DNA of 64,000 nt from Verrucomicrobiota bacterium. Its GTDB lineage: Bacteria; Verrucomicrobiota; Kiritimatiellia; UBA8416; JABMPJ01. A program made the translations under genes and the position numbers. The DNA is taken from contig JABGQM010000024.1 in NCBI GenBank assembly GCA_018648805.1, positions 1,065-65,064 of the forward strand, in the 5' to 3' direction. The notes below the pieces were generated by a model, which saw only the letters and a list, made by a program, of their open reading frames with translations, searched no databases and was not told where the DNA came from. This document shows, piece by piece, positions 4,493 to 30,509 of the stretch (position 1 is its first letter; every line of letters starts with the position of its first letter).

Positions 4493-4495
4493 CCT

Positions 4496-6460: not shown

Positions 6461-6545
6461 GACAAACGATTAAGGTGAAAGATTAGGGCGAAAGATTAGG
6501 AAACCCAAGCACGGATACCTTAATCTTTCGCCTTAATCTTTTGCC
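6461..6545. repeat. Family D hairpin element, occupies whole 5' leader of paralog 3
   Basis: gattaaggtgaaagattagggcgaaagattagg aaacccaagcacggatac cttaatctttcgccttaatcttttgccctaatc; ends 5 nt before ATG (minus strand). Confidence 0.75.
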
Positions 6546-8606: not shown

Positions 8607-10145
8607 CTATAAAAGGGCCGCAGCCTTGGCCTCCTTTTCTATGGCCTCAGCCTGACGGTCCAGCTTCCGCAGGATGACTCCCCACGTCTGCCACACAGTC
8701 GCCTTTTCCGGTTCGAGGGCCGCGGCCTCCCGGCAGAGCGGCAGTGCTTCCTCGTCCCTCCCCAGCGTCGACAAGATCGTGGCAGCACTTATCCTGTACC
8801 CGGCCTTGTCGGGCGCCAATTCGGCCGCTTTCCGAAAGCCCGCCAATGCCGCCTGCAGATCGCCGGTTGCCGCCTGCATGACAGCCAACTCAGCCAACAG
8901 ATCGGGATCGTCCGGCCGCAGGCGCACCGCGTCCTGCAGGTGCTGAAGGCTTTTCTCGGGGTAAGAAGCCTGCAGACACCGCGCCTCACCGATGAGCGCG
9001 TCACTCATATCCTGCCAGCGCGCGTTCGTGCGCTGTGCGACGAACTCGGCCGCCGCAACGGCATCCTCGGTGAACGGTCCAGCGGCCGATGGAACGGCTC
9101 GCTCACCGCCCACCGCCGCCACCACCTCTTTGAGGGCCAGGGCCGCCACGGTACTCCCGGTTTCGTTGGGGTGCCACCCGTCGCCCACCGTGTAGGCGAG
9201 TTTCGGCCCGTTGCCAAGCTTTGTCGCGGCATAGTGTTGACGAAACGCGGGGGCAAGCCGGAAACACGGGATCCCCACCGCGCGGGCAAGCGGTTCAACG
9301 ATCAGGGTGGTGCCGTCCGGCATGAAAGGTATTTCGGTGATCGCGTCGTCCTCGAAGACGGGCCAAACAGCAACGGCCGGCCGAAACCCGTAGATGTCCG
9401 CGAGTCGCCGCAGCAGGGCCAGGCCCTGCACGACGTTGTTCGATCCGATCGCGGTCTTATTCCGCACTACCGGATCGCGCCGCATGCCGAAACTCGTCCA
9501 TCCGGCACTCACCAGCGTGGCGCGGAACAGGTGCGAACGGGCGAACAATGCCCGGAAGGCTGGCGAGGGCACGTCCTTGTCGGCAAGGGCCTCGACAATG
9601 GACGAATTAAAGTTCTCAAAATCGTTCCAAAAGAAGACGACGATCACGATGTCGGGTTCGAATTTCAGCCCTTTAACGCGCAGCAGTTCGACTTCGGCCA
9701 AGGTACAGTAGCCTCCGACGCCGAAGTTCAGTACCTCGGTCTTGCCGTCCGGGTAGAGCTTCTCGAGTTCACGATTCATGACATCGTTGACGTCGGAAAT
9801 CTCGGTGCTCTCGACGATAGAGTCGCCCAGCAGAATCACCCGGCGCACCCCCGGCGGCTTTGCGATGGTGCGCTCGATGTCGCGCTGCCCGTGGGCATTG
9901 ATCCTTTCGCAAGTAAAGTCGTGATCCGGACTCGGGTTGTAGTAGTCAGGCTTCAGCTCGTAGCCGAGGATGGGATTGTCCGAACGCCGGTAGATGGACT
10001 CGTGATCCTCGAAGGACACGGTGATACGCCGGAACGGCGGGGCGAGCTTGAGCGCCATGGCCAGGATCTCCCCCGCTCCGAGGGCCACTACAACCGCGAG
10101 GATCAGCAGCAGGAGGCGAAAGAGGAGGCGCGCGTTCTTGGTCAT
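8607..10145 (-). CDS. SGNH/GDSL hydrolase domain + C-terminal TPR protein, membrane anchored
   Basis: TM anchor LLFRLLLLILAVVVAL; ILLGDSIVES (GDS), GDGWHPNETG (DxxH); C-terminal TPR-like repeats; stop abuts start of paralog 4. Confidence 0.65.
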   Translation of the reverse strand: MTKNARLLFRLLLLILAVVVALGAGEILAMALKLAPPFRRITVSFEDHESIYRRSDNPILGYELKPDYYNPSPDHDFTCERINAHGQRDIERTIAKPPGVRRVILLGDSIVESTEISDVNDVMNRELEKLYPDGKTEVLNFGVGGYCTLAEVELLRVKGLKFEPDIVIVVFFWNDFENFNSSIVEALADKDVPSPAFRALFARSHLFRATLVSAGWTSFGMRRDPVVRNKTAIGSNNVVQGLALLRRLADIYGFRPAVAVWPVFEDDAITEIPFMPDGTTLIVEPLARAVGIPCFRLAPAFRQHYAATKLGNGPKLAYTVGDGWHPNETGSTVAALALKEVVAAVGGERAVPSAAGPFTEDAVAAAEFVAQRTNARWQDMSDALIGEARCLQASYPEKSLQHLQDAVRLRPDDPDLLAELAVMQAATGDLQAALAGFRKAAELAPDKAGYRISAATILSTLGRDEEALPLCREAAALEPEKATVWQTWGVILRKLDRQAEAIEKEAKAAALL

Positions 10146-12409: not shown

Positions 12410-12412
12410 CCT

Positions 12413-14455: not shown

Positions 14456-14500
14456 CCTTCAGCTTTCATCCTTCATCCCTCATCCCTCATCCCTCATCCC
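14452..14500. repeat. Heptanucleotide tandem repeat (GAGGGAT)4-GAAGGAT spanning stop codon of paralog 7 and RBS/start of paralog 6
   Basis: minus-strand reading: agagggatgagggatgagggatgagggatgaaggatgaaagctgaaggATG; 2-3-unit versions at 4488..4520 and 12405..12440. Confidence 0.75.
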
Positions 14501-16699
14501 TCTCTTCATCATTTTCCTCGCCTTGCGCAGATTATCTCGCGCCGCAGTATAGTCCGGTTTCAATCGCAGCGCCTCTTCAAAATGCCGGATCGCCTCGGCG
14601 AGTCGGCCGCTTTTCTGGTAGGTCATGCCCAGCTTGTAGTGGGCTGGTGCGAACTCCGGTTCGAAACGCAGGGCGTCTCGATAGCAGTCCATCGCCTCCC
14701 CGGGCTTCCCGGCCGCTTCCAGTGCAATCCCCAGGTTGTACTTGACCTCGGGGGAGTGCGGCTTGAGACGGGCTGCTTCACGGTGGTGCCTGACCCCTTC
14801 CCGGGGCTGTCCCTGCGCCAATAGCGCGTTGCCCAGGTTGATGTGAGCTTCCGCGTGATTCGGGTCGAGCTGTATGGCCTCTCGGTAGCGGGCAATCGCT
14901 TGCCGCGGCTCACCGGCTGCCTCCAGGGCAACCCCCATATTGTAGTTGATTCCGACGGAGTCCGGCTTGAGCCTGAGCGCATCCCGGTAATGCACAATCG
15001 CCTCCCGTGGATGCCCGCCTCTCAGCAGGGCATCACCCAGATTGCCCTGGGCGTCTTCCAGGTCCGGCTTGATCCGTACGGCCTCTCGATAGTGATCTAT
15101 CGCCTCCCCCCGCTGTCCCGACACCTCCAGGGCGATACCCAGGTTGTAGTTGACATCGGCGTCGTCCGGTTTGAGCCGAAGCGCCGCCCGGTAGTGCCGT
15201 ATGGCTTCACGGGTCTGCTTCAGAGCTAGCAGGGCATTGCCCAGGTTGTTGTGAGCATCTGCATACTCCGGGTCGATCCGCAGCGCTTCCCGGCAATGCG
15301 GAAGCGCTTCCCGGGCGCGACCCGACGCCAGCAGGGCCTCGCCGAGATTGACGTGGGCCAGCTGGCTCTCCGGCCGATGCGCAACATTGTCCTGCCACAA
15401 CCCGATGGTGCTGTGATAGTCACGGTTGCGAGCATAGGTGAGGGCCCCGAGGACAACCACGACTACCGCTGCCAGGGCGCCACGCGCCATTGCACGCGTT
15501 GAAACCGTGCGAACGCATCGGACCACGCGCGAGACGCCGATCACCGCGAGGACCACGACCGCCGCGAGCGACAGGTACATGCGGTGCTCGACCATCGCCT
15601 GCCGTGTGGGTGCGATGCTGGAGGTCGGTGCGAGGATCAGGAGGAACCACGCCAGGACGAACCCATACCAGCGGCGGCGCCACAGGCCCCGAATCATCAC
15701 GGCCAGCATGCCCAGAATAACCAGGGCCGGAAACACGATGGGTGGCCACTGAGTTGTAAATGGCCACTCGTAAGACAGAACCAGTGGCGACGGCCAGACC
15801 GCCAGGCGCAGATACTGCAGTAGAACGAGGGGCTGGGTAAGGGCGTAGCGCAGCGGACTGATCTCGACAAAATCGATCGTCGATTCCTTCCAGGTTAACC
15901 CGATGATGCCGAGAACGATCAGCCAGGTGGCAAAGAGGCCCGCGTAGAACCGGCCTCGCGCTCGGCGAGCGCGGGCTACATGGCCCGATCTCTGTAGCCC
16001 GCGCTCGCCGAGCGCGAGGCCATCGGTGAATACGTAGTCATAGAGAATCACCAGCAGCGGTGCACTGAACATCGTCTGCTTGACTCCCATGCCGATGGCG
16101 CAGGCGACGACGGCGGCCACGTACCAGCGTCCACCCTTGTCGCTCGTGAACCCCCTAATCGCACAATACATCGTCAACAGAAACAACATCCCCATCAGTG
16201 ACTCGGCGCGTTGCACGATGTAGGTGACGCTCTCGGTCTGCAGCGGATGCACCAGCCAGATCAAGGCGACGGCAAGCGACAACCAGGTCGGGTTGCCCGG
16301 GCATCGCTCGCGAAAGCGCGGCAGGTCCAGTGTACGCCTGACCACCCCGAAGAGGAGCAACCCGGCCACGAGGTGAATCAGCAGGTTGACCAGGTGGTAG
16401 CCCCACGGTTCCGGGCCGAACAAGAAATGATTCAGAGCAAATGACAGACTGAGCAACGGCCGCCCGTCCACGGTCGTAGCCGTGCTCCACAGCGGCAGCG
16501 ACATAGCCTCACTGAGCGGCCACAGCGTGCGGATATGTGGGTTATCCCGAATGGAGGTTAGATCGTCGTACAGGAACACGCCGTCGAAGCTGTTCCAGTA
16601 CGCCAGCACACCCGCCAAGATCAGGAGCAAGGGGGGGAGGAAACGACTCAGCAGTATGTGAGTGTGTGGGTGTCTGGGTATGTTGGTGTTGCGTTGCAT
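14480..16699 (-). CDS. TMTC/PMT-like GT-C + TPR protein (paralog 7), in-frame REP insertion
   Basis: N-term MQRNTNIPRHPHTHILLSRFLPPLLLIL then conserved core; insertion DGLALGERGLQRSGHVARARRARGRF from REP pair 15952..16021. Confidence 0.7.
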   Translation of the reverse strand: MQRNTNIPRHPHTHILLSRFLPPLLLILAGVLAYWNSFDGVFLYDDLTSIRDNPHIRTLWPLSEAMSLPLWSTATTVDGRPLLSLSFALNHFLFGPEPWGYHLVNLLIHLVAGLLLFGVVRRTLDLPRFRERCPGNPTWLSLAVALIWLVHPLQTESVTYIVQRAESLMGMLFLLTMYCAIRGFTSDKGGRWYVAAVVACAIGMGVKQTMFSAPLLVILYDYVFTDGLALGERGLQRSGHVARARRARGRFYAGLFATWLIVLGIIGLTWKESTIDFVEISPLRYALTQPLVLLQYLRLAVWPSPLVLSYEWPFTTQWPPIVFPALVILGMLAVMIRGLWRRRWYGFVLAWFLLILAPTSSIAPTRQAMVEHRMYLSLAAVVVLAVIGVSRVVRCVRTVSTRAMARGALAAVVVVVLGALTYARNRDYHSTIGLWQDNVAHRPESQLAHVNLGEALLASGRAREALPHCREALRIDPEYADAHNNLGNALLALKQTREAIRHYRAALRLKPDDADVNYNLGIALEVSGQRGEAIDHYREAVRIKPDLEDAQGNLGDALLRGGHPREAIVHYRDALRLKPDSVGINYNMGVALEAAGEPRQAIARYREAIQLDPNHAEAHINLGNALLAQGQPREGVRHHREAARLKPHSPEVKYNLGIALEAAGKPGEAMDCYRDALRFEPEFAPAHYKLGMTYQKSGRLAEAIRHFEEALRLKPDYTAARDNLRKARKMMKRGMRDEG
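15952..16021. repeat. REP pair inside CDS 14480..16699, in frame
   Basis: ggcctcgcgctcggcgagcgcgggctaca...ctgtagcccgcgctcgccgagcgcgaggcc. Confidence 0.85.
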
Positions 16700-19084: not shown

Positions 19085-19545
19085 GTGTGCTAGCCGATCT
19101 GTTCATCACCTCTATGGCAACTCGACCAGACAGGAGAAGTTGCCCGCAGATCCCGCAGATGGACGCAGAAGAGAGTAGAGAGAGGGAGAATGTTGCGGGA
19201 ATCCGTCGGCGATGGAATACCATCGCCATAGGATTCCCGCAACGTGGCTCCCCGGCTGCTAATCGCAGCCGGTTGGGGCACTGGGAGCGCCGGAACGCTG
19301 GGCGTGAAGTACAGACGGGCGACACGTGCAGGCTCCCTATCGATGGGTCCTGACACGGGTCTTCCCGGGCGCGATTAGCGCCCGGCGGATAACGTTGCGG
19401 AAATTGAGTGGGGCCGGCATACCGCGCCGTAGCCTTGGCGAAGGCGGGTATTCCGGCCACGCCAATTCCCGCAACATTTCCCATCTCCCGATCTGCGTCC
19501 ATCTGCGTAATCTGCGGGCAGTCTCTCCCGTGAGTTGGTGAACAA
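19085..19545. repeat. Complex nested inverted-repeat region (MITE or structured RNA) between carbamoyltransferase and sxtK-like gene
   Basis: outer arms cccgcagatcccgcagatggacgcag (19137-19162) vs ctgcgtccatctgcgtaatctgcggg (19494-19519); inner hairpins gttgcgggaatcc...ggattcccgcaac and ccggcataccgcgcc...ggcgggtattccggcc. Confidence 0.6.
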
Positions 19546-19551
19546 TTCTGT

Positions 19552-21381
19552 CTAGTCCAGAACCCGCTCTTCGCGCCAGTCCTTTTCCTCGCTCCAGGGC
19601 GGTTGGTCCGGTTTGGCCACGAGGTAGGATCCCAGGACCAGGTAGTCCATCTCGGTGCGCATGAAGCAGGTGTAGGCATCCTCGGGCGTGCAGACAATCG
19701 GTTCCCCGCGCACGTTGAACGAGGTATTGATCAGAATGCCGTACTCCGTACGGTCTTCGAAGGACTTGATCAGGTCGTAATAACGGCCATTGGTTTCGTG
19801 ATTGACGGTCTGTACGCGGGCGGAGTAGTCCACGTGGGTGATCGCGGGCACATCCGAGCGCACCATGTTGACGCGCTCTGTCATCGGCACGTCTCCCGCA
19901 TCATCGCGGCGCACACAGCGCTCTTCGCGTAGCGGAGCGACCAGGAGCATATACGGCGATGGCTTATCCAGCTCGAAGAAGTCGCTCACGCGCTCTTCCA
20001 GACAGCTCGGCGCGAAGGGTCTGAAAGACTCCCGGTACTTGATTTTCAGGTTCATGACCGACTGCATCTTCGGTGAACGGGCATCGCCCACGATCGACCG
20101 GTTGCCCAGCGCCCGCGGTCCGAATTCCATGCGTCCGAGACAGAGCCCCACGACGTTCTCCTCGTCGATCAGCGCGGCGATGGTCGCGGCCCATTCCTCG
20201 TCCGCCAGCTTGCGCGCCGGATAGCCCCGCGCTTCCAGGAACGCCCCGATCTCGTCGTCGGAAAACTCCGGCCCCAGGTAAGAGCCCTTCATCGTGTCGT
20301 GCACACCGTCGGCTTTCCGGGGGTTGCCCTGAATGCCGTGCCAGGTGAACAGTGCCGCGCCCAGCGCCCCGCCGGCATCACCCGCCGCCGGCTGGATCCA
20401 CACGTTCTCGAAAGGCCCTTCGCGCAGTAGGCGGCCGTTCGCCACGCAATTGAGTGCCACCCCACCGGCCAGGCAGAGGTTCTTCTCGCCTGTGATCTCG
20501 TGCGCATGCCGCGCCATGCGCAAGACGATCTCCTCGGTGACGACCTGGATCGATTTGGCCATGTCCATCTCCCGCCGGGTGATGTCGCTTTCTTTCTTGC
20601 GCGCGGGCCCTTCAAACAGTTCCTCGAACTTCTTGTTGGTCATGCGCAGTTCGTCCAGATAACCGAAGTAGTCCATGTTCAAGCGGAACGAACCGTCTTC
20701 GCGCAGATCGACGAGGTTGTCGAGGATGAGGTCCACGTAGCGCGGCTCGCCGTAAGGGGCCAACCCCATCAGCTTGTATTCGCCCGAATTGACCCTGAAC
20801 CCCGCAAAGTAGGTAAAGGCGGAGTAGAGCAGCCCCAGTGAATGCGGAAAACGGATCTCCTTGATAATTTCGATCGTGTTGTCCTTGCCCCGGCCCACGG
20901 TGGTGGTGTCCCATTCGCCGACCCCGTCCAGGGTCAGGATCGCCGCGCTCTGGAACGGCGACGGCAGGAATGCGCTGGCGGCATGCGATTCATGGTGCTC
21001 GGGGAAGAAGAGGTCCTTCGGCATACGGAAACCGCTCTTCTCCACGGCCGATTCGATATGGTAAGGGATCCAGAGTTTCTCCTTCATGCAGACCGGCATG
21101 GCCATGAGGAACGAACGCAACCCCTTGGGTGCTACGGAGAAATACGTTTCCAGGATGCGGACGAACTTCGATATTGGCTTGTCATAGAAGGCCACGGCGT
21201 CCAACCCGTCGGCGGCCACCTCGCCCTTCGCCAGACAGTAATTGACGGCATTCACCGGGAAGCCGGCGTCCTGTTTCTTGCGGGTGAACCGCTCTTCCTG
21301 CGCCGCGGCGATGATGTCGCCGTCGCGGACCAGGACCGCTGCCGAATCATGGTAGAAAGCGCTAATGCCGAGAATGTTCAT
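19552..21381 (-). CDS. NodU/CmcH-family carbamoyltransferase
   Basis: MNILGISAFYHDSAAVLVRDGDIIAAAQEERFTRKK... and C-terminal YgjD-like and carbamoyltransferase blocks (GGVALNC, ITHVDYSARVQTV, LINTSFNVRGEPIV); start ATG 21381 overlaps stop of upstream gene (TGATG). Confidence 0.9.
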   Translation of the reverse strand: MNILGISAFYHDSAAVLVRDGDIIAAAQEERFTRKKQDAGFPVNAVNYCLAKGEVAADGLDAVAFYDKPISKFVRILETYFSVAPKGLRSFLMAMPVCMKEKLWIPYHIESAVEKSGFRMPKDLFFPEHHESHAASAFLPSPFQSAAILTLDGVGEWDTTTVGRGKDNTIEIIKEIRFPHSLGLLYSAFTYFAGFRVNSGEYKLMGLAPYGEPRYVDLILDNLVDLREDGSFRLNMDYFGYLDELRMTNKKFEELFEGPARKKESDITRREMDMAKSIQVVTEEIVLRMARHAHEITGEKNLCLAGGVALNCVANGRLLREGPFENVWIQPAAGDAGGALGAALFTWHGIQGNPRKADGVHDTMKGSYLGPEFSDDEIGAFLEARGYPARKLADEEWAATIAALIDEENVVGLCLGRMEFGPRALGNRSIVGDARSPKMQSVMNLKIKYRESFRPFAPSCLEERVSDFFELDKPSPYMLLVAPLREERCVRRDDAGDVPMTERVNMVRSDVPAITHVDYSARVQTVNHETNGRYYDLIKSFEDRTEYGILINTSFNVRGEPIVCTPEDAYTCFMRTEMDYLVLGSYLVAKPDQPPWSEEKDWREERVLD

Positions 21382-21899
21382 CAATACTGTTTCCGGTAAT
21401 AGTCGGGGGTTGAACGGCGCGGCGTCGATGTCCAGTATGTCTTCGTGTCCTTGTTCAGCTTGCGCTGCATGGGGTCCACCCCCCGCACAGCGAGAATGAG
21501 CCGACCCGGGATGAAGCAGAGCACGAAGAAGGGCACCAGCAAGATCCAGGTCAGTGCCAGACCTACTGCCTTCCCCAACCACGCCCCGAACCGTTCGATG
21601 GCCGCAAAGACCGGCGGCACGAACAGGCCGCTGAGCAATACCACGGTCGCCAGAACGCAAACCACGACCGCCATAGCCGGGTGTTTGACGACAAAAGCCA
21701 TCACGGCGGCAATGGCCGTCATCACGCAAGCCTGGATAAGCGCCTGGCGTCGTCGCGCACCGCCAGCGGCTGCCCCGGTCTGCCCCGCCGCGGTAACCCA
21801 GGGCCATATCGTCGCCGAGACACTGCTCTGCCGGTAGGGCGTTGCCGTATCTTCCGCCGCGTTAACCTGTTCGTTCATCATGGTCTCCCTCTCCCGCAC
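21381..21899 (-). CDS. SxtJ-like polytopic membrane protein translationally coupled to carbamoyltransferase (start may be the internal MMNEQ)
   Basis: Three to four predicted TM helices (AIAAVMAFVV, VVVCVLATVVLLSGLFV, ALTWILLVPFFVLCF); stop overlaps carbamoyltransferase start; size and context match sxtJ-type partners. Confidence 0.5.
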   Translation of the reverse strand: MRERETMMNEQVNAAEDTATPYRQSSVSATIWPWVTAAGQTGAAAGGARRRQALIQACVMTAIAAVMAFVVKHPAMAVVVCVLATVVLLSGLFVPPVFAAIERFGAWLGKAVGLALTWILLVPFFVLCFIPGRLILAVRGVDPMQRKLNKDTKTYWTSTPRRSTPDYYRKQY

Positions 21900-21929
21900 T
21901 GGTTTCTATCAAACCCACGCACGCCTGGC

Positions 21930-22223
21930 CAGCGCGGGCTACGTAGCCCAGAGTGAAGTTGGCCGGTCCGCATCCCGCATGGCCCTCCCAGTAGCCCGCT
22001 CTCGCCTGCCCTCCGTCTTGTCCTCCAAAGCTCGCAGAGCGACGGAGGAAGCCAGCGAAGCGCGAAGGATGGGCCGAGAGCGAGGCCGCTCTATGATGGT
22101 GCAGAGCTCTTAAGCATCCTGCCTCGCGCTTGGCAAGCGCGGGCTACATAGCCCAGAGTGAAGTCACCCGGTCCGCATCCTGCATGGCCCTCCCTGTAGC
22201 CCGCGCTCGCCGAGCGCGAGGCC
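21930..22223. repeat. Intergenic REP/BIME array (about six units with a ~90-bp composite unit duplicated at 21932 and 22138)
   Basis: gcgcgggctac(g/a)tagcccagagtgaagt...ctgtagcccgcgctcgccgagcgcgaggcc. Confidence 0.8.
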
Positions 22224-22345
22224 TCCCGGAAGATTACCTCGGAAGAATACGCAAACGCTCTGGGATGCTCTGGGACTGAAACACCCATTGCGTAGCGACA
22301 GGAACAGTGTTAGAGTTACAACCAATGGGTACGAGGTCGGGTGAC

Positions 22346-22639
22346 ATGATGCAATACGATTTCGAGTGGGACCCCGAGAAGGCTAGTCAGAACAGGGGGA
22401 AGCACGGCGTCACCTTCGACCAGGCCGCTGGAGTTTTTCATGACCCCAGGGCAGCATCGCTCTATGACACGGAACACAGCGAGACGGAAGACCGCTGGAT
22501 AACCATGGGTCTCTCGGCAGCAGGAGGCCTGCTGGTGGTGCACCACACATACTAGGAAATCGATGACAGCCGTGTGCGGATCAGAGTATTCTCCAGTCGC
22601 AAGGCGACACCTGAAGAGATCAGGCAATATACGGAATAG
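22346..22639 (+). pseudogene. brnT: BrnT-family (DUF497) toxin interrupted by an in-frame amber stop at 22553-22555
   Basis: MMQYDFEWDPEKASQNRGKHGVTFDQAAGVFHDPRA...LVVHHTY*EIDDSRVRIRVFSSRKATPEEIRQYTE: same frame on both sides of TAG; the downstream part is the canonical BrnT C-terminus. Confidence 0.7.
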
Positions 22640-22642
22640 GCC

Positions 22643-22843
22643 ATGAAGAAACAGTATGACTTTTCTACAGCGACGCGTGGTAAATTCTATCATCCGGATG
22701 CCCGGTTGAACCTTCCGGTATACCTGGAGGAAGAGGTGCGGCAGTTTGTTGCAGTGATTGCCGAGCGTAAGCACTCCGACGTGAATGAGGTCGTGAACGC
22801 CCTGCTTCGGTCCGATATTGGCTTGGCCAAGGCCATGCAGTAA
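22643..22843 (+). CDS. brnA: BrnA-family antitoxin
   Basis: MKKQYDFSTATRGKFYHP... 66 aa, directly after brnT remnant, typical BrnA N-terminus. Confidence 0.65.
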   Translation: MKKQYDFSTATRGKFYHPDARLNLPVYLEEEVRQFVAVIAERKHSDVNEVVNALLRSDIGLAKAMQ

Positions 22844-22860
22844 CGGATTCCGCCCGCTCC

Positions 22861-23030
22861 CTGTAGCCCGCCCCGCAGATGCAGGGCTTAACGTCGCCCA
22901 TTGGCCTCGCGCTTGGCAAGCGCGGGCAACATGCATCAGCTCCCCTGTAGCCCGCTCTCGCCGAGAGCGAGGCCGACTCCAGGTGGAAGCCTTGCCCTCC
23001 ATCATCCTGCCTCACGCTCGCCGAGCGCGG
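22861..23030. repeat. Intergenic REP cluster
   Basis: ctgtagcccgccccgcag...ctgtagcccgctctcgccgagagcgaggcc...cctcacgctcgccgagcgcgg. Confidence 0.75.
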
Positions 23031-23444
23031 GGTGTGCCCTGGCATCTTATCGATACGCTTAGCAGAGAAGTCCAGCCTGGGCGAGGTAGGCTACAGAAGA
23101 CCCCGAGACTGTCCGTTGACAGATGGTCTCTTCCTTTGACCTTTTCCAGGCGCACGGACGGCGTGGAAGCCGTCCCTCCAGCCCGATCGGCCAGCTCTGG
23201 TGTCCTGGAGGGTCGGGTTCCATCCCGACCGGGCCACTATCGGGCCAATCTGTCGTGGCGCATGGATGCGTTGCGCACTTTTGCGCCATAGACTCTGTCG
23301 CCCGTCATAAATCCGTTCGTTTTCGGAAAGATCGTAAAGTATGACTTCTCTACAGCGATCCTTTTGCCGCTTGGCGAAAGACCTCTGCCGCCTAACTCTG
23401 GTGACCCGAGGTCGCTCGTGAGAGGAGTCCCTGTCCCGATCTGC

Positions 23445-23681
23445 CTATTTTGCATCATGTGGATCAGCGGGAACGTCAGGAACTCTGGACATGATGTCAC
23501 GGAACTCCTTGCGCGAACCCGTGGCGGCACGTTTGGCAAGGTAGGTTTCTGTCATGAGTGCTGAAATCTTCTCGGCGACAGCCGTGGAGATTAGCTGATT
23601 GACAGAAATATGCTCTTCTCGGGCAAGGGCACGCGCCGTTTCATGAAGAGAGTCAGGCAGTCTTAGGCTGAGTGTGCTCAT
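23445..23681 (-). CDS. Ribbon-helix-helix type antitoxin
   Basis: 78 aa, ...HISVNQLISTAVAEKIS... (RHH/HicB-like C-terminal motif); overlaps PIN gene by 4 nt. Confidence 0.6.
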   Translation of the reverse strand: MSTLSLRLPDSLHETARALAREEHISVNQLISTAVAEKISALMTETYLAKRAATGSRKEFRDIMSRVPDVPADPHDAK

Positions 23682-24106
23682 TTCTCTTTCCCTTTCTCTT
23701 TCAGGAAGTCACCCGGGGTGATGGCAACAATCCCGAACTTTCCAATATCTCTGAAATCTCGAAGATTGAAGGTGACAATATACTCACATCGTCCGCTGAC
23801 AGCGGCCTCTAGGACCATGTCATCTTTCGGGTCCCGAAGAAACGGTCGCCACAGAAAGTGCACCTTGCGGCAGTCACTGACAGAGCAGACAAAACTCAAG
23901 TATCTTTCGATATCGATAGCACTGAAGGGCACTTCGGTTCGTGGGTCACACAGTGACTTTTCGTACTCCACCACCAGGGGCACCGTCACCACCGGGCGGT
24001 ACAACCGGCCCCCCAGAAATGACAGCATGCGGTAAGACATACCCCGTCTGGAGCGCAGGCCCGACACAAGGACGTTAGTGTCAATTACGACTCTGACCAA
24101 GCTCAT
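23678..24106 (-). CDS. PIN-domain toxin
   Basis: VVIDTNVLVSGL at N-terminus, acidic residues spaced as in PIN; 142 aa. Confidence 0.65.
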   Translation of the reverse strand: MSLVRVVIDTNVLVSGLRSRRGMSYRMLSFLGGRLYRPVVTVPLVVEYEKSLCDPRTEVPFSAIDIERYLSFVCSVSDCRKVHFLWRPFLRDPKDDMVLEAAVSGRCEYIVTFNLRDFRDIGKFGIVAITPGDFLKEKGKEK

Positions 24107-24509
24107 GGTGATACCGTATACGGTATTCCTCTGACTGTCAACTCATCCAGCAGAATGTGTCCGTATGGTCTTTCCCTATGGCCCGACAGTGCCCCGGTCG
24201 GGGTGGAACCCGACCCTCCACAGCACCACAATGGGCCGATGTCCAGTTGGAGGGCCGGCTTTTGTCCGCGCGCCTGGAAAAACCAAGGGAAAAGCCCATG
24301 TTTTGTCTCCTTCTTCGCAATCCCCGCTCGAATTCACTCGACAGGGGGGGGGGGATGGTATTTTTGACGGAGAGTTGAGCCAATATTATGTCTAAAAGCG
24401 TCAGTCTACATCCGAAAATAGAATTCAACGCGATGTCCCGTGGGGGGGATCGCGCGAGGCAGGGGAACCAACAAGTCAACAAACAAGTCAACAATATGGA
24501 GGACAGGCA

Positions 24510-25280
24510 GTGATGAAGAAACAATGGATAACAACAGTGGTCATGATCGCGATGGTGTTGGGTTTAGTGTCAGGAACGGTGTTGGGGGCTGACCTGTTCA
24601 GTGAACTCGGTATACTGGATCTGGATGCCAACGGCGGGATCAATCCAGCAACCGGCAACCCCTGGCAGGCTGGCGATACGTATCGGTTCGTCTTTTCATC
24701 CAGCGAGGTTTACCCCAGCGATATAACCAGTTCGGACACGATTGCCACGTACAACAACTGGATCCAGGGGCTCGCCGATGCCAGCAGCCTGCGTATTGGC
24801 ACCGCCGAAGGTGTCACATGGAACGCGCTCGTCTCTACAGCATCCGTCAACGCACGCGACAACACCTCAACCAATCCCAATACAGACGGGGATGGCGAAG
24901 GGATTTTCCTGTTGAATGGCACTACACGGGTTGTGGATGATTACGTTGAAGTCTGGAATGTTGGTGGTGTGAATGCCAGTCAGAATAGCGGTATCGTTAT
25001 AGACGAGAATGGGGATCCGTGGAATAACACTGACGCGACAATATGGGCAAACGCGAGCTACGGAGGCACATGGACAGGTACCAAGAACGACGGAACGGTT
25101 GGCTCTCCTCTGGCGACCGATGCCGATGTCACCTGGGGCGGGACGCCCTGGACCGACTACAACCACTGGATCTATCGGTCCAATGCGGACCCCTCCGCCA
25201 ATGCGGGGTTGATGTACGGCCTCTCCGAGACCCTGACGGTGTGGACCCCGCCCGCCGGAACGCTTGTGACAATCAGGTAG
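24510..25280 (+). CDS. Secreted hypothetical protein (signal peptide; Gly/Asn/Thr/Trp-rich)
   Basis: N-terminal signal MMKKQWITTVVMIAMVLGLVSGTVLGA; no recognised catalytic motif; 3' end lies inside a ~160-bp direct repeat. Confidence 0.5.
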   Translation: MMKKQWITTVVMIAMVLGLVSGTVLGADLFSELGILDLDANGGINPATGNPWQAGDTYRFVFSSSEVYPSDITSSDTIATYNNWIQGLADASSLRIGTAEGVTWNALVSTASVNARDNTSTNPNTDGDGEGIFLLNGTTRVVDDYVEVWNVGGVNASQNSGIVIDENGDPWNNTDATIWANASYGGTWTGTKNDGTVGSPLATDADVTWGGTPWTDYNHWIYRSNADPSANAGLMYGLSETLTVWTPPAGTLVTIR

Positions 25281-25420
25281 GACGCAAGACTCCCTGAGAC
25301 AGGGGTGAAGTGAATCACGAATGGGGTGGGGCATCTGTTGCCCCACCCCTCGTGTTATAGGTCCCCAATCGGACGCTAGCTCGACCGCCGCCCTGTCTCT
25401 CCCGCTCCCTGTAGCCCACT
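25262..25420. repeat. Direct repeat copy 1 (~160 bp; partner 28013..28178; fragment near 46270..46300)
   Basis: ...cgcttgtgacaatcaggtag...gggtgaagtgaatcacgaatggggtggggcatctgttgccccacccctcgtgttataggtccccaatcggacgctagctcgaccgccgccctgtctctcccgctccctgtagccc. Confidence 0.75.
25285..25370 (+). terminator. Probable intrinsic terminator hairpin after secreted-protein gene (inside direct repeat)
   Basis: ggggtggggcatctgttgccccacccc stem-loop followed by tcgtgttat. Confidence 0.45.
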
Positions 25421-25632
25421 CATTTGAGCGCAGTTCGCATCGCATTCTGAGGTGTGGCCAGATATGGCCGGATTTGCCAGCATAGCGACGATAGGTCGTC
25501 CCGTAATTCGCAACTGATTGTACTCCAGATGGATAGCAAACAACGACGCCCCAGGTCAGTCGCCACAGTGAAGCGTTTGCTCCCCCAAGAAGAATGATGT
25601 CCGGATTTGGCCGGATTTGGCCGGATTTTCGA

Positions 25633-27015
25633 TCACCGAGGCCCCCCTTGCACCCGGCGGTAGAGCGTGGCTCGTCCCTTTCCATGGCGCTCAATGATGC
25701 CGCGATCTTCCATGTCGGCCAGGTCACGCCGCGCTTGCCGTTCGCTGACGCCGGTGGCAGTCAGATAGTCCGCTGTCTTGAACTCCGCGCCGGGCTTGAG
25801 CGATTCGACGAACTCAGCCTGGCGGCCAGTCAGGGCCTCCTCCGCGGCCGGCTCGGGTGCCCGAAAGAGCGTTACGGACACGATCCCTCCTTCGGCACGC
25901 CACCTCGGCGTTTTTGCGCCAAGCTCCTTACATTCCCAGATCATCCTCTGCGTACCTATGCCGAGCTGGTCCATGAGTCTTCGCAGGTAGAAGACACGGG
26001 CAATGTCCGGGTTTACGGGAATTGAGCGGTGTTCCGTTCTGAGGCTGCCTGGCGTCAGATCACCCGGTAGGCTGCCCGGGTTGGTAACCACCAGTCGATC
26101 CGGGTAGATCTCTACCCGGATGCATCCCCCCACGGTCTCGTAGGATCGATGCGTAATGGCATTCACCAGGGATTCCCTGAGCGCGTAAACGGCGTAGGCA
26201 GGCCGGTCAACTCGCTCCAACTGATCCTTCTTGAAGCGTCCGGAGAACCCGGTGCGTTGCTGTATGATGGAGACGGCCTCACGCAGTGTGCTAACCGCGG
26301 GTCCATCCAGGATAACATCGTTGGCAATGGGGCCGGACTTGTTCCCTGCATATGAAATGACCCGCATGTATATGCTGGGGGACCATCTCCGCGTCTCAGC
26401 AGCGAAAAGGACCAAGGCCGCATTGGTAAGGACGCCGCCACGTCGCAGGTAGAGCTGCTCAAAAAGCGCGCCATCTTCAGCCGGAATGTTCCCACCGAAG
26501 CGCCCGGCCTCAGCTATGTCCGTGCGGGTCTTGGCCAGTTCATCCGTTCTGCAGTCCTCGATGCCGAAGCCGGGCATAGGGTCCCGCTCCCAGCGCTCAA
26601 GATCCGCTGCCGCCCGTTCGACGAGATCAGCACTGCGTTCTTCGCCTGCGCGCATCGTTGCGCTGCCAATGCGCACCCAAATCTGGCGATTGACGGAGTA
26701 GGGTTTGTCGGAGCCCGGGGGGACCCGAATGACGATGACGTCGATCCCATGGGCCTCCTGAACGGAAACAGAAAGGAAAGGACGCGGATTGATTCTGGAC
26801 ATGAAGAGTCGGTTCAGTTCCTCTGCCACGTCTGTTGCGTGTTGGATGCCCGTGGGCTCGCCCTGATCGTTCACACCCCATAGCAGAAAACCGCCTTGCT
26901 GGTTCAGCAAACCACAGACCGCACGTGAAAGCGTGTCTGGGGAACTCCGAGGCCCCTTGAACTCAACCGTTTCGGACTCACCCAGCTTGATCAACTGAAG
27001 GACACGTGAATTCAT
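25633..27015 (-). CDS. Schlafen/AlbA_2-like DNA-binding domain + HATPase-like + C-terminal wHTH protein (often annotated RecG-like regulator)
   Basis: N-term ESETVEFKGPRSSPDTLSRAVCGLLNQQGGFLLWGV (AlbA_2 signature); C-terminal HTH ...ADYLTATGVSERQARRDLADMEDRGII. Confidence 0.55.
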   Translation of the reverse strand: MNSRVLQLIKLGESETVEFKGPRSSPDTLSRAVCGLLNQQGGFLLWGVNDQGEPTGIQHATDVAEELNRLFMSRINPRPFLSVSVQEAHGIDVIVIRVPPGSDKPYSVNRQIWVRIGSATMRAGEERSADLVERAAADLERWERDPMPGFGIEDCRTDELAKTRTDIAEAGRFGGNIPAEDGALFEQLYLRRGGVLTNAALVLFAAETRRWSPSIYMRVISYAGNKSGPIANDVILDGPAVSTLREAVSIIQQRTGFSGRFKKDQLERVDRPAYAVYALRESLVNAITHRSYETVGGCIRVEIYPDRLVVTNPGSLPGDLTPGSLRTEHRSIPVNPDIARVFYLRRLMDQLGIGTQRMIWECKELGAKTPRWRAEGGIVSVTLFRAPEPAAEEALTGRQAEFVESLKPGAEFKTADYLTATGVSERQARRDLADMEDRGIIERHGKGRATLYRRVQGGPR

Positions 27016-27656
27016 GCCGGTCCTCCCTTGACGCGATTGCGAATTGCTTTTGTGTCTTTCAAGCGAGGCAGGTATTTCTCTGCAAGCTCACGATATCGAC
27101 GGAACTGAGCCGTGGCGAACAGTCTGGCGTCATCGTCCGGACCGAATGGCTGTACCCAGTTGGCTCGTCTGTGTTTGACCTCGGCAGCATCCAGGTTCAT
27201 AGCCTTCTCATAGAGGTCCAGAATGCGAAGATCTTCGAGAATAGGCGTGGCCTGGAATTCGATACCCGGCTTCAAACGGAATGTCGTCTCGTGATCGGGA
27301 TCTCGGTACGGTTTGAGGAGATGCCGGGCAATAGCGACGTTCTCGTGCACCAGGAACCAGCGAGGTTTGTTCAACTCGATGGCCCGAAGGGCCTCCCGGT
27401 GCGTGATGGAAAGCGAGTCCTTCTCTTCTCTGCCGGACCCATAGCGAGGCAGGATCATCCCAAGGAAGACGTCACACTTCTCTACGGCTTCAAGGCAGCT
27501 CGTCATGGCCGAGAGTTCGGGATCGATGGGCACGGTTCCCTTGTGGGACATCAGTACATCATACTGGTACTCGTCGAGCAAGGAGTAGATGCTTTCCAGC
27601 AGATCTTCGTAGCCATAGACAACAGATGACACAAGTATCTTCAGCTTTGTGCTCAT
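27012..27656 (-). CDS. DUF4062-domain protein
   Basis: MSTKLKILVSSVVYGYEDLLESIYSLLDE matches DUF4062 N-terminal pattern; start ATG 27656 with GGAGAG RBS; ATGA overlap with downstream gene. Confidence 0.5.
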   Translation of the reverse strand: MSTKLKILVSSVVYGYEDLLESIYSLLDEYQYDVLMSHKGTVPIDPELSAMTSCLEAVEKCDVFLGMILPRYGSGREEKDSLSITHREALRAIELNKPRWFLVHENVAIARHLLKPYRDPDHETTFRLKPGIEFQATPILEDLRILDLYEKAMNLDAAEVKHRRANWVQPFGPDDDARLFATAQFRRYRELAEKYLPRLKDTKAIRNRVKGGPA

Positions 27657-28012
27657 GAGAATGCTCTCTCCAGTAATCCGTCCTGCACAGCTATGGGTGT
27701 CGCGTATCGGTCGAGTTTGAGACGCGCTGGAAAGACGACCGTTGGTCGTCCCCCACTGATGAACAGGATGGGCATATGCCCTTGGAAACCAGCCTGAAAC
27801 AGCGTCGTCATGTGAAGAGAGCATGCCGCATAGGTGCTGGACGGTCAAGGCCGGGGATAAACGGCGTATGGGAGGCAGCGTGGCGGAGATGTCACCGCCA
27901 GGGTCAGACTGGAATAGCCCTGTCCTGCATAATGATGAACCCCACCTCGCCTGGCAATCCGATAGCCGTTGACTGAAGGCGGCCCCTACCTGTGCGCAAG
28001 CACGCGGTCCGC

Positions 28013-28178
28013 GCCCCCTCCGGCACGCTCGTGACGATCAGGTAAGGCGCAAGAATCCCTGAGAAAAGGGTGAAGTGAATCACGAATGGGGTGGGGCATC
28101 TGATGCACCACCCCTCGTGTTATAGGTCCCCAAAATCGGACGCTAGCTCGACCGCCGCCCTGTCTCTCCCGCTCCCTG
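28013..28178. repeat. Direct repeat copy 2 (~90% identical to 25262..25420)
   Basis: ...cgctcgtgacgatcaggtaag...gggtgaagtgaatcacgaatggggtggggcatctgatgcaccacccctcgtgttataggtccccaaaatcggacgctagctcgacc...ctccctgtagccc. Confidence 0.75.
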
Positions 28179-28243
28179 TAGCCCGCTCCCCGCGGAGCGG
28201 GGTAAACTCGCCGCTTGCCCCGCCTTGGCGGGGAGAGCGAGGC
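28176..28243. repeat. Intergenic REP units
   Basis: ctgtagcccgctccccgcggagcggggtaaactcgccgcttgccccgccttggcggggagagcgaggc. Confidence 0.75.
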
Positions 28244-28661
28244 TGGCTCTGCAGGTGGAGTAGAGCTCTTGAGTATCCCGACGTGACCCCGGCCTCAACC
28301 GGCCTTGTCCCGCGGCACTCGGGATACCCCCTGCAGCCCCAGAATTCGCCCCGGGTGGAGCTGCGCTTTTGCATGGGCTTTGCGCACTGCGGGCAGGTCG
28401 GGGCATTCAACCGGGAAAGAGCAGTTGGCCGAGAAGACAAGGGCAAAGATTAGGGTAAAGACGAGGGGACTGGATCTCTCCCTTAATCTCTCCAAAAGCG
28501 GCGGCGCTACCGAAGTACACCCAGCGGGTGCAAGCTCGGAGAACCGGATCGTCAATGCCGACAGGCTATTCCGGTGTTTCGCGCAGTTGAACTGCCGACT
28601 ATAAACTCAACCGGCGCCAGCATGATCGAGAGGGATATCCTCTGACCTGTGCCTTTGGCCC

Positions 28662-29120
28662 CTATTTCTTGGCCCAGTTTTCCACCTTCAGGCCCTGGAC
28701 GCGCTTGAATTCGGCTTCGTTGTTCGTCACAAGCGTCGCACCTTGCGCCTGGGCATGCGCGGCAATCATGAGGTCCATCGCCCCAATGGGGACGCCGGCC
28801 TTCTCTAGCATGCAGCGTATCTCGCCGTAGTGACGAGGAACATGAACGGCGTCGCAATCCAACAGGGCAAATGGCGCCAGAAGCTTCGATACGGCCCGTC
28901 GCTCCTTTTCTGGATGTGCGGACTTCCCGGCACCATACTCAAGTTCACAGACGGTCACCATGGACACACCCACAGTGGCACCGGCAGTGAGGTGACGCTG
29001 TATACGTCGCCGGATACGTTGCGCCTTTGTGTGGCGGGCAGACGTGTGGTCGGGATCCTTCAGTCCCCGGATCATGAAGATCAGAATATCCGTGTCGAGC
29101 ATGTAGAGGCCGGCAGCCAT
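28662..29120 (-). CDS. vapC: VapC-type PIN toxin
   Basis: MLDTDILIFMIRG...; conserved acidic residues; true start probably Met at 29102. Confidence 0.7.
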   Translation of the reverse strand: MAAGLYMLDTDILIFMIRGLKDPDHTSARHTKAQRIRRRIQRHLTAGATVGVSMVTVCELEYGAGKSAHPEKERRAVSKLLAPFALLDCDAVHVPRHYGEIRCMLEKAGVPIGAMDLMIAAHAQAQGATLVTNNEAEFKRVQGLKVENWAKK

Positions 29121-29123
29121 AAC

Positions 29124-29345
29124 TCAAAAGCCCCTGTCTTCAAGCGGCGGCTGATTCCGCTCTGCCAGGAAATCAGCCGGCAGCTCGGACACGCCCTCGT
29201 CAAACAGCGTCCACGGCTCCTTTTCTGTGAGAAGCAATCCATCAGCGGTGGGCTGGACGTTGACCTCCCGCGAATGGAAGCGATAACGCTTGGGCAACCT
29301 GACGGCCTGGCTGCGGCCCGATGTAAATACCTTGGCTGTGATCAT
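29124..29345 (-). CDS. vapB: AbrB/MazE/SpoVT-family antitoxin (VapB-like)
   Basis: MITAKVFTSGRSQAVRLPKRYRF (SpoVT/AbrB swapped-hairpin motif); 3 nt upstream of vapC. Confidence 0.7.
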   Translation of the reverse strand: MITAKVFTSGRSQAVRLPKRYRFHSREVNVQPTADGLLLTEKEPWTLFDEGVSELPADFLAERNQPPLEDRGF

Positions 29346-29460
29346 AGGGCACCGATCCTTTCTTTCCGTGATACCTACCAATGGGTATATACCATATGCG
29401 CCGGAATGTCAAGTCGAACGGGCTCCCATGATTATGCATCCGTCTCCCTTGCAGCCCTCC

Positions 29461-29658
29461 CTGTAGCCTTCCCTGTAGCCCGCGCTCGGCTCCCCCTGAG
29501 CTTGCCGAAGGGCCGAGCGCGAGGCAATCCTGCCACATGATTCTGCTCAGGTCCGATTTTGCCACGTTTGCCACACCACGCCGCCCGTCCCGCGTCGCTA
29601 CATCTTTCTTCCCCTGCAGCCCTCTTCCCTGTAGCCCGCGCTCGCCGAGCGCGAGGCC
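29461..29658. repeat. REP cluster flanking RAYT (downstream side)
   Basis: ctgtagcc...ctgtagcccgcgctcggc...ctgtagcccgcgctcgccgagcgcgaggcc. Confidence 0.8.
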
Positions 29659-29681
29659 AAAACTCGCAGAGTCTTACGCCA

Positions 29682-30332
29682 TCACAGCACGCGTCCTCCC
29701 CACGACCCATACGGCCACGCCTCGGCATCATCTACCAGGCCTGCTCGAACGGGGTTCTGCCTGATATAGTGGGCGATGCGGTCGGTCTCGTCGGCGGACC
29801 TCGACCAGTGATCGAACCATTCGTCCTGCCAGAACCGTTGGCCGGTGCGTCCGAGAAGCTGGTTCGCCTGTCGAGCGGTCCAGCGCTTGAAATCGGTCAG
29901 CAGCTCTCTCATGCCCACTTGGCCACCGATGTAGAGAATGTGGAGGTGACTCGGCATGACAACCCAGTGCAGAGGACGCCAGACACCGTTTGCGGCCCGT
30001 TTGGCGATGGCTTCACCCAGCATGCGGGCCACCTCCGGATTGCCCAGCCACTGCACGCGCTCGGTGTGGTCGAGCCATTCCTCCATCTGCTTGAAGATAA
30101 GCTTCAGCCTGCGGGTGTAGTCCCTGTCGCCCCGGTGGCAGAGCGATGCCGCATCCGCACGGATGCGCTGCATCGCCTCCTTGGGAATAGCACCACGCAG
30201 ATGCAGCGTCAGAAAGATCGGGCGGCCCAGCACATCCCAGTGCGGCAGGTTGCCACCCCAGAACGCGCGTGTCTGTGGCTGGCCGTCGTAGACAACCGGA
30301 GGATAGCCATCATGCGGGCGGGCAGATTGCAT
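29682..30332 (-). CDS. REP-associated tyrosine transposase (RAYT, IS200/IS605 Y1 family)
   Basis: HUH-like motif MPSHLHILY, C-terminal ...WQDEWFDHWSRS...IAHYIRQNPVRAGLV typical of Y1 transposases; flanked on both sides by REP clusters (29461..29658 and 30352..30509); start set at second Met because the first 12 codons are REP sequence. Confidence 0.7.
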   Translation of the reverse strand: MQSARPHDGYPPVVYDGQPQTRAFWGGNLPHWDVLGRPIFLTLHLRGAIPKEAMQRIRADAASLCHRGDRDYTRRLKLIFKQMEEWLDHTERVQWLGNPEVARMLGEAIAKRAANGVWRPLHWVVMPSHLHILYIGGQVGMRELLTDFKRWTARQANQLLGRTGQRFWQDEWFDHWSRSADETDRIAHYIRQNPVRAGLVDDAEAWPYGSWGGRVL

Positions 30333-30351
30333 AGGCGCAGTGTGGCAGATG

Positions 30352-30509
30352 GGCCTCGCGCTTGGCAAGCGCGGGCTACAGGAAACCCATCCAGCCTCCC
30401 CGCATCACTTCTCCGCCATGTAGCCCGCGCTCGCCGAGCGCGAGGCAAGATGCTCGATGGCATTACTCCCAATGAAACCAGCCACGCTCTCGCCGAGAGC
30501 GGGCTACAG
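30352..30509. repeat. REP cluster flanking RAYT (upstream side)
   Basis: ggcctcgcgcttggcaagcgcgggctacagg...tgtagcccgcgctcgccgagcgcgaggc...ctctcgccgagagcgggctacag. Confidence 0.8.

Follow-up and report, generated by a model that had tools for sequence, protein, structure and literature searches.

A DUF4062 gene coupled to a Schlafen-GHKL-wHTH gene: a candidate two-gene anti-phage module with its own repeat arrays in a Verrucomicrobiota bacterium

Introduction

What do two overlapping genes do that lie as a closed pair between two direct repeats, and how did they come to lie there? This question is raised by a stretch of 64,000 nucleotides from a Verrucomicrobiota bacterium (GenBank assembly GCA_018648805.1, contig JABGQM010000024.1, positions 1,065 to 65,064), hereafter the window, in which a gene for a DUF4062 protein overlaps a gene for a Schlafen protein with a GHKL ATPase domain and a predicted winged helix-turn-helix (wHTH). 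The initial annotation, made from the letters alone, had proposed that the pair is a small uncharacterised defence module, and that its insertion left a duplicated 3' end and terminator of the neighbouring secreted protein on both sides. Our analysis supports the first proposal but not the second. What marks the pair as a discrete accessory module of the defence type is strict synteny in 80/80 loci, restriction-modification (R-M) and BREX genes as neighbours, low GC content at third codon positions (GC3) and protein identities that reach 65-84% across phyla; it is not a system in PADLOC v2. We consider it rather probable that the two genes form a self-contained anti-phage module of the abortive-infection type that has spread horizontally. 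The direct repeats around it are read here as the 3' ends of two different genes.

Both domain families are known defence components, DUF4062 and Schlafen-GHKL having been shown to act in defence only in 2025-2026 and always as single proteins; here they are coupled by an operon and occasionally by fusion. DUF4062 is a TIR-like NADase of abortive-infection defence that needs a C-terminal auxiliary (AUX) or sensor region, as in Swarozyc and Evangelion (10.64898/2026.05.01.722283; 10.64898/2026.06.25.731849), and the Pfam model of DUF4062 covers only half of the fold (Swarozyc supplement). In SLFN-pAgo the SLFN domain, with the motif E-x4-(D/E)-x-K, cleaves tRNA after tetramerisation driven by GHKL and ATP (10.64898/2026.05.29.728809). 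Schlafen-HisKinase-HTH proteins make up 19% of prokaryotic Schlafens (PMC13056530) and the Schlafen-HisK-wHTH type is widespread next to BREX (PMC12839542). Four pSlfn architectures, HisKinase included, have been tested alone, and defence was obtained only from the DUF262 and Ig-like fusions (PMC13056530). In the literature searched, no paper links DUF4062 with Schlafen, and a full-text search of the NIR preprint (10.64898/2026.09.04.749371) found none of the terms Schlafen, SLFN, AlbA and HTH.

Results and discussion

An obligate gene pair in bacterial and archaeal phyla

The 4-nt overlap of the two genes (ATGA), pointed out in the initial annotation, is seen in the window sequence, and a search for the pair elsewhere found the same arrangement in distant lineages. 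A scan of 185,579 genomes, one per species, gave 186 pattern matches, 180 of which encode relatives, so that the candidate system occurs in roughly 0.1% of species genomes (180/185,579) of Bacteria and Archaea. The best 80 loci were fetched, and in 80/80 of them a homologue of the Schlafen-ATPase, detected by tblastn with the window protein, lies immediately downstream on the same strand; the 4-nt overlap is often repeated. These loci span Verrucomicrobiota, Planctomycetota, Acidobacteriota, Myxococcota, Pseudomonas, Alteromonadales, Spirochaetes, Akkermansia, Methanoculleus, Methanothrix and others.

The DUF4062 protein has 786 relatives with up to 89% identity, hundreds of them at 65-89% in metagenomes, where the few with a source name come from Verrucomicrobia, Fermentibacteraceae, Aegiribacteria, Kiritimatiellae and Opitutia; the window itself belongs to a Verrucomicrobia metagenome-assembled genome (MAG). 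A profile-free search of 1.84 billion representatives gave 620 clusters at E<=1e-3 and 64 at E<=1e-30; the best 150 of the 620 representatives are mostly of 150-260 aa, that is, stand-alone proteins or fragments. The clade is recognisable by the motifs MSHKGT and NKPRWFLVH. One representative of 640 aa (P0206, contig L115) is a natural fusion in the order DUF4062-SLFN-HATPase-wHTH, which speaks for the two products working as a single unit.

A second subfamily, mostly from Gammaproteobacteria and Spirochaetes, has a different C-terminal domain and the same gene pair. Examples without the repeat element described below are Pseudomonas capsici (L056) and P. avellanae (L050). In nine gammaproteobacterial loci of the subfamily (L039, L042, L044, L053, L055, L058, L064, L070, L093) the pair is flanked by two different hsdM-like genes belonging to a type I R-M operon that continues with hsdS and hsdR, and the C-terminal domain reads …EHFRKxYLxPAL…KPxSxxQKYRLT, preceded by TPEVT-like peptide repeats.

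A neighbourhood dominated by defence genes

The company kept by the pair points to conflict functions. Type I or other DNA methyltransferases account for 24-27 of 128 immediate neighbours, and further neighbours are GmrSD, PglZ, BrxC-like, DUF6361, and SNF2/ZorD-like and DEAD helicases. Many of the gammaproteobacterial loci have the pair inside a type I R-M operon. In the window it belongs to an islet of about 8 kb (about 22300-30400) with BrnT, HicB/PIN_3, a PIN/MazE-like pair and a RAYT, which interrupts genes for glycan or lipopolysaccharide (LPS) biosynthesis. With a GC3 of 0.64-0.68 both genes resemble the toxin-antitoxin genes and fall below the core neighbours (0.75-0.83). This GC3 and the identities across phyla indicate that the module was acquired and spread horizontally.

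The LPS or glycan genes on the flanks would suit an ordinary housekeeping role, in which the pair combines nucleotide metabolism with a regulator and has no conflict function. The patchy spread across phyla at high identity, the variable and defence-dominated neighbourhoods and the occurrence in so small a part of species genomes make this hardly credible.

The islet itself suggests another role. As it is rich in type II toxin-antitoxin pairs, two overlapping genes within it might form an addiction module, with the DUF4062 protein as the toxin and the Schlafen-ATPase as antitoxin or regulator, which would stabilise the islet with no phage sensing; NADase toxins are known and the module is horizontally spread. 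Against this stand the partner, a 460-aa multidomain protein with several enzyme domains and a conserved nuclease site of its own in place of a small labile antitoxin, and the promoter region, in which no operator is seen (the 400 nt upstream hold no repeat motif in the window, nor do they in most other loci). Toxin-first order and fusion are also atypical, and the pair is found by preference next to R-M and BREX genes, not next to genes for the maintenance of mobile elements. We give the addiction module a poor chance.

Domains and conserved residues of the two proteins

The DUF4062 protein matches its Pfam family (PF13271) over residues 6-91 with 54.5 bits against a cutoff of 24.7 (1.4e-14), and its 214 aa hold no extra domain and no C-terminal auxiliary sensor region. 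The motif S83-I-T-H-x-E88 is at least 95% conserved (n=78 sequences); E88 is kept in the natural fusion, in which E105 is not. An AlphaFold2 (AF2) model, made from a low-diversity alignment of 16 sequences and used for topology and coarse fold class only, places E88 at the start of helix C with low confidence (pLDDT 55). The top Foldseek matches of this low-confidence model are NDT, TIR-STING, DNPH1, SARM1, SPARTA TIR and ThsB, with E values of 1e-4 to 1e-2, which would put the protein among TIR-like and NDT-like folds. A sequence search for solved structures related to this protein returned none.

The Schlafen protein carries SLFN_AlbA_2 (71.1 bits against a cutoff of 25.3, 1.5e-19) followed by the GHKL domain HATPase_c_4 (PF13749; 67.2 against 26 bits, 1.3e-18). 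At its C-terminus all wHTH-type Pfam matches are below threshold (DIP2311-like_C 23.7 against 27 bits, HTH_DeoR 18.2 against 21); this region aligns weakly to the C-terminus of PDB 3LMM, the only solved-structure relative of the protein, and its pattern RQARRDL...GKGxATxY is conserved in 35 loci. The nuclease motif E13-x4-E18-x-K20 and N38, the latter in a SAFAN-type box, are present in the window protein. Among full-length relatives E13 is kept in 63/70, E18 in 62/70 and N38 in 69/70, and the GHKL residues E281, N285, N312, G314, G352 and G354 of the N, G1 and G2 boxes are each kept in 70/70. The PADLOC models, which had been suggested as a check, match the pair only in part: the pAgo model (SLFN-pAgo) aligns with residues 38-391 of the partner, that is, with the SLFN-GHKL part alone.

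Phased repeat arrays that travel with one wHTH subtype

Nucleotide homology between the window and distant loci spans ~27660 to ~25598. It closes with a stretch of ~30 nt that is 94-97% identical in Acidobacteriota and Planctomycetota loci, as against about 65% for the coding DNA. Two clusters of short direct repeats, a proximal and a distal one separated by a non-conserved spacer, lie downstream of the operon and belong to the conserved unit, whose end is some 33 nt away from the left direct repeat. The repeat consensus is AAATCCGGMC over 10-11 nt, and about 30 loci share the layout of two clusters with 2-3 units each and a period of 10-11 nt; the second cluster lies at +110 to +175 past the stop codon in most loci with the first wHTH type. 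Element-bearing loci are L016-L036, L069, L074, L076, L077, L080, L084 and L115. The tandem motif occurs at only three places in the window, all within the two clusters (0.39 expected by chance), and 1.6 Mb of fetched loci hold only 7 tandem matches elsewhere, of which 4 are the same two-cluster element, situated upstream and inverted, in two Myxococcales loci. The fusion locus has 10-11-nt tandem repeats downstream too, with one cluster inverted.

The arrays go with the protein. The tandem motif is found in 22/35 loci with the RQARRDL-type wHTH (type 1) and in 1/35 others (p=6e-8), and this restriction to one wHTH subtype indicates that the arrays are probably the operator of that wHTH. The unit variant is identical in both clusters of a locus and varies with the second residue of the predicted recognition helix, GGCC being paired with V-S in 13/13 loci and GGAC with V-V, V-T or I-T in 9/10 (no phylogeny correction). 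Most economically, the arrays are probably a DNA operator to which the wHTH binds.

A non-coding RNA in the spacer was considered and rejected as the leading idea: there is no Rfam match and no excess folding energy (25 loci, both strands, mean z -0.2 and -0.6). Unpaired Schlatpases in L023 and L051, checked for repeats, have other C-termini and are uninformative. In four loci (L035, L036, L074, L077) the DUF4062 or the Schlafen gene is truncated or frameshifted and the downstream repeat clusters are retained, as in decaying modules.

An operator pointing outward raises the possibility that the Schlafen-ATPase-wHTH protein is chiefly a transcription regulator or sentinel of adjacent defence genes, the repeats being the operator of an outward promoter and the DUF4062 protein an accessory enzyme or signal generator. 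In every case the element faces outward from the operon, and in Myxococcales, where it is upstream and inverted, it lies between divergent genes; only one wHTH subtype has the repeats; and about half of the loci have a co-directional gene that begins 35-200 nt past the distal cluster. Ten such neighbours were scanned, and they include methyltransferases, GmrSD, PglZ, a faint BrxC-like (DUF6079) match and a DEAD helicase, two having no Pfam family. On the other side, no co-directional gene follows in the window or in L017, L023, L030, L036, L076 and L077, so that in the window the pair would be a regulator that lost its target. No promoter-like hexamers stand in constant register, the best sigma70-like matches of the spacer lying at no constant distance to the clusters. 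A pure regulator would have no use for nuclease, ATPase and TIR-like catalytic residues, yet these are conserved, and the repeat-less subfamily retains the same gene pair. We regard the regulator as unlikely on balance, with a real chance of being right.

Flanking direct repeats as paralogous gene ends

That the two-gene cassette lies between direct repeats is confirmed: a repeat search, MAFFT and blastn delimit a pair of 171 and 173 nt with 91.9% identity (E=3e-66), a few bases off the boundaries first given (25262..25420 and 28013..28178). The first ~150 nt of the repeat occur at two places only in the window. Its final ~20 nt (CCCTGTAGCCCGC) form the head of a dispersed repetitive extragenic palindrome (REP) with at least 15 copies in the window, whose core CTGTAGCCCGC, followed by a GC palindrome, is present at both repeat ends and at many other sites, and also in the inverted repeats on both sides of an IS200-like Y1 transposase gene. 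The initial annotation had described each repeat as the C-terminus of the upstream secreted protein with its terminator hairpin and a REP unit. This holds for the left copy, the genuine 3' end of gene A, which closes with PPAGTLVTIR and TAG, and hairpins and REP heads are found in both copies. The right copy, in contrast, ends in APSGTLVTIR and TAA, is orphaned in the window by an in-frame stop 23 codons upstream, and belongs to a different gene. The T-tail is poor and a terminator scan called neither hairpin; the folding energies are -31.6 kcal/mol (z -4.9) on the left and -24.2 kcal/mol (z -2.7) on the right.

The different gene came to light in a strain variant. Exact-protein look-ups with the Schlafen protein, gene A and both flanking PIN genes led to about a dozen metagenome contigs of the same population, to which a metagenome scan with gene A added nothing. 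The identical gene A protein adjoins the cassette in every metagenome contig that carries gene A, and all recovered contigs that span the junctions carry the cassette, apart from one. This variant, L101 (ENA ERZ4200996 NODE_30458, from an oxygen-minimum-zone metagenome), is 99.8% identical to window 29430-28009 and then diverges; in it the right repeat ends an intact gene X (L101 1386-2057), which encodes a secreted protein of at least 223 aa with beta-strand repeats that ends in LAPPPSGTLVTIR and which takes the position of the cassette's upstream region. The slot to the left of the right repeat is therefore occupied by different cargo depending on the strain. Since in L101 the right repeat closes an intact gene of its own, the two copies are read as paralogous 3' modules of genes A and X, each made of a tag, a hairpin and a REP, and not as a duplication made by insertion. 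This reading accounts for the 8% divergence between the copies, which would be modules of two genes, and for the coding part, where the GTLVTIR codons differ by synonymous changes only, as expected if this part is a conserved C-terminal tag.

Under the proposal of a duplicated 3' end around an inserted cassette, the cassette would have integrated at the 3' end of gene A, either site-specifically or in Campbell fashion through a carried module of 170 bp, and so produced the direct repeats. The cassette does sit exactly between the repeats, the conserved unit does end close to the left one, and the breakpoint between window and L101 (28009-28016) falls on the first base of module homology, as from recombination within the module; the last point hints that the modules do recombine. 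Yet the right copy is of gene-X type along its whole length, 99.8% identical to the copy on intact gene X in L101 and with no chimerism. Of what marks integrative elements, no recombinase or integrase was found between the repeats, which enclose only the two genes; the repeats are only 92% identical; and no single-copy empty site occurs in any contig with the flanking genes (exact-protein look-ups and the scan with gene A). No other locus of the pair has such flanks, and tblastn of 27400-28050 found no remnant of gene X or gene A beyond the tag of 9 aa, and none of the gene X body left of 28016. Integration of this kind is accordingly given little credence here, and the locus shows that gene ends of tag, hairpin and REP common to neighbours can mimic target duplications.

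The REPs themselves appear to be recombination joints in the islet. Contig L001 is identical to the window from ~19500 to 28243 and then switches inside a REP to another right flank; in L001 and L009 the new flank past 28243/28244 holds a RAYT variant (87% identity) and HicB-like, DUF6036 and HEPN/NTase genes, and no PIN pair.

Some further observations concern genes A and X. The gene A protein matches no Pfam or NCBIfam family. A search for full-length gene X found only four distant homologues, and the one with context (L112) lies in an unrelated neighbourhood; three of them, from other organisms (P0121-P0123), end in PPGTVLLVR, AAGTLIYFK and SAGTMFVFE. Gene A, gene X and these homologues are unrelated secreted proteins that share a short end tag, PP.GT[LVM]h.h[RKE] directly before the stop codon (window 25248-25280 and 28016-28045), which may serve secreted proteins of the Verrucomicrobia type as a C-terminal signal for sorting or anchoring, so far undescribed. 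The gene X-type hairpin has two substitutions that make its stem ~7 kcal/mol weaker than the left one, and the same weak form stands on intact gene X in L101.

Mode of action

Their domains and relatives allow a mechanism to be proposed for the two proteins. The DUF4062 protein, TIR/NDT-like with E88 as its predicted catalytic residue, would hydrolyse NAD+ as the Swarozyc and Evangelion enzymes do, without their AUX region. The Schlafen-GHKL-wHTH protein, whose gene is translationally coupled to the DUF4062 gene, would serve as a regulated oligomerisation platform and probably also as an RNase. Both proteins would form one complex, in which the GHKL domain may act as an ATP-driven oligomerisation switch, as in SLFN-pAgo, and unite the SLFN domains, making the RNase or tRNase active, and the TIR-like domains, making the NADase active. 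Infection would then lead to NAD+ depletion and/or tRNA cleavage and to growth arrest. The most likely target of the wHTH is the set of helically phased AAATCCGGMC repeats; by binding there it would either keep a resting complex on DNA or control an outward transcript or a neighbouring gene. The islet rich in REP/RAYT and toxin-antitoxin genes would be the place where such cargo is exchanged between modules.

A bolder version, to which we allow a slim chance, makes the complex a dual effector (NADase and tRNase) that is held inactive by tethering of the wHTH to its own phased arrays, so that loss or remodelling of this DNA during infection would release both enzymes. The triggers would be chromosome degradation, a change of topology or competition by phage DNA, and a parallel may be drawn with the guide-RNA filament that locks SLFN-pAgo. 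If true, it would be a mechanism of guarding self-DNA that has been described for no defence system.

Several observations weigh against the anti-phage module. The fusion is one cluster representative from one contig, and an error of 1 nt could merge the overlapping genes. The AF2 model of the DUF4062 protein, with its beta-alpha-beta order, has a pLDDT of only 55; E88 is equated with KpSwz E97 by motif position and not by residue-level superposition; only 43/70 sequences retain K20 of the nuclease motif; and no PADLOC model matches the DUF4062 protein. The second subfamily has no repeats, the repeats lie downstream of the operon, an odd site for an autoregulatory operator, and the co-directional defence gene just past them in about half of the loci fits a regulator. 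The pair is nearly absent from plasmids (2 records) and viral contigs (1), and the module is not typically phage- or plasmid-borne. For the flanks, contig L101 stops 672 bp into gene X, before the left junction, and is too short to decide on recombination. With these points taken in, we still think the two-gene anti-phage module rather probable, and the pairing might explain why no protection was reported for Schlafen-HisKinase constructs when these were tested alone (PMC13056530). The pair would be a natural case of a TIR-like enzyme that borrows its sensor or its oligomerisation switch from a Schlafen-ATPase, and the phased repeats offer a handle on the regulation of a defence protein that bears a wHTH.

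Features of the window

The positions of the pair, its repeat element and the flanking features are collected in Table 1. The region upstream of the operon holds one weak sigma70-like site (27957-27929) that is not above chance. The RAYT-like gene matches Y1_Tnp with 22.6 bits (E=1.3e-4), just below the 23-bit cutoff. Farther away, at 2531-16699 on the - strand, lie seven tandem open reading frames of 512-755 aa, with TPR repeats in 4/4 scanned and a PMT_2 glycosyltransferase domain in 2 of those; REP-like palindromes at 11663-11773 and 13725-13835 are situated inside two of the seven.

Table 1. Coordinates of the gene pair, its repeat element and neighbouring features in the window
Feature	Position	Strand	Description
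DUF4062 protein	27012..27656	-	214 aa, short stand-alone, TIR-like/NDT-like; predicted catalytic Glu88 in S-I-T-H-x-E
Schlafen-GHKL ATPase-wHTH protein ('Schlatpase'-HTH, pSlfn HisKinase-HTH type)	25633..27015	-	460 aa
Proximal cluster	25598..25632	-	Three direct copies of AAATCCGG(C/A)C, 10-nt period; starts 2 nt past the Schlafen stop codon
Spacer between clusters	25479..25597	-	Non-conserved; 68-138 nt in other loci
Distal cluster	25456..25478	-	AAATCCGGCC ATATCTGGCC, two direct 10-nt units
Upstream region of operon	27657..28015	-	Promoter presumed; blastn homology to other loci stops at ~27660; no gene X remnant
Gene A	24510..25280	+	256-aa secreted protein with signal peptide, ends PPAGTLVTIR and stop; flank, outside the module
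Left direct repeat, 3' module of gene A	25251..25421	+	Last 10 codons and stop, GC hairpin 25323-25349, REP head ~25400-25421
Right direct repeat, orphan 3' module of gene X	28016..28188	+	Tag codons 28016-28045, hairpin 28088-28114, REP from ~28165
PIN toxin and MazE/AbrB-like antitoxin	28662..29381	-	Toxin 28662..29120, antitoxin 29124..29381; flank; missing in L001, which diverges at 28244 inside REP
RAYT-like gene bracketed by inverted REPs	29625..30385	-	Gene 29682..30368; flank; inverted repeats of 34 nt, 91%

Comparison with known systems

Two known kinds of system bear on the repeats of the locus. REP/RAYT systems share with it the REP units at the repeat ends, a Y1 transposase with inverted REPs 1.5 kb away and strain rearrangements inside REPs; they explain only the last ~20 nt of the repeat, together with the sequence just past the right copy, and perhaps also why the islet is plastic, not the cassette. 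The ParR-parC system of plasmid R1 has iteron- or centromere-like arrays of short direct repeats. Its two helically phased clusters of 10-11-bp repeats around a short spacer, as for cooperative binding of a small DNA-binding domain, are like the element described here in layout only: the window has no partition ATPase, no plasmid context and a different repeat sequence, and binding to its arrays is a prediction.

Among two-component TIR systems, Thoeris (ThsB/ThsA) and SPARTA (TIR-APAZ/pAgo) likewise join a domain of the TIR type that processes NAD+ to a separately encoded partner, which provides sensing or oligomerisation, and are of the abortive-infection type; the partner in the window, however, has no SLOG, Macro, SIR2 or Argonaute domain, and no PADLOC Thoeris or SPARTA model matches.

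SLFN-pAgo (RzAgo) and the 'Schlatpases' share with the window protein the order of SLFN_AlbA_2 and PF13749, the motif E-x4-(D/E)-x-K, a SAFAN-like box and the GHKL residues. Where SLFN-pAgo has an Argonaute sensor, the window protein has a wHTH and a TIR-like partner gene.

Swarozyc, Evangelion and 'NIR' share with the window pair a DUF4062 domain, here predicted to be TIR-like, with a Glu in a motif that is equivalent by position (KpSwz E97, TEP1 E1008), the setting in defence islands and the horizontal spread; NAD+ depletion and abortive infection would be expected for the window pair as for these systems. Those are single proteins with a C-terminal AUX sensor that defence requires, whereas the DUF4062 protein of the window has 214 aa, no AUX and a separate Schlafen-GHKL-wHTH partner, and the pair has a dedicated DUF4062 clade and repeats in cis. 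New with respect to the literature searched are thus the obligate pairing, the sensor-less DUF4062 clade and the travelling repeat arrays, and together they give a signature by which the system can be annotated: a DUF4062 protein of the MSHKGT/NKPRWFLVH type, followed by a Schlafen-GHKL protein and by AAATCCGGMC arrays.

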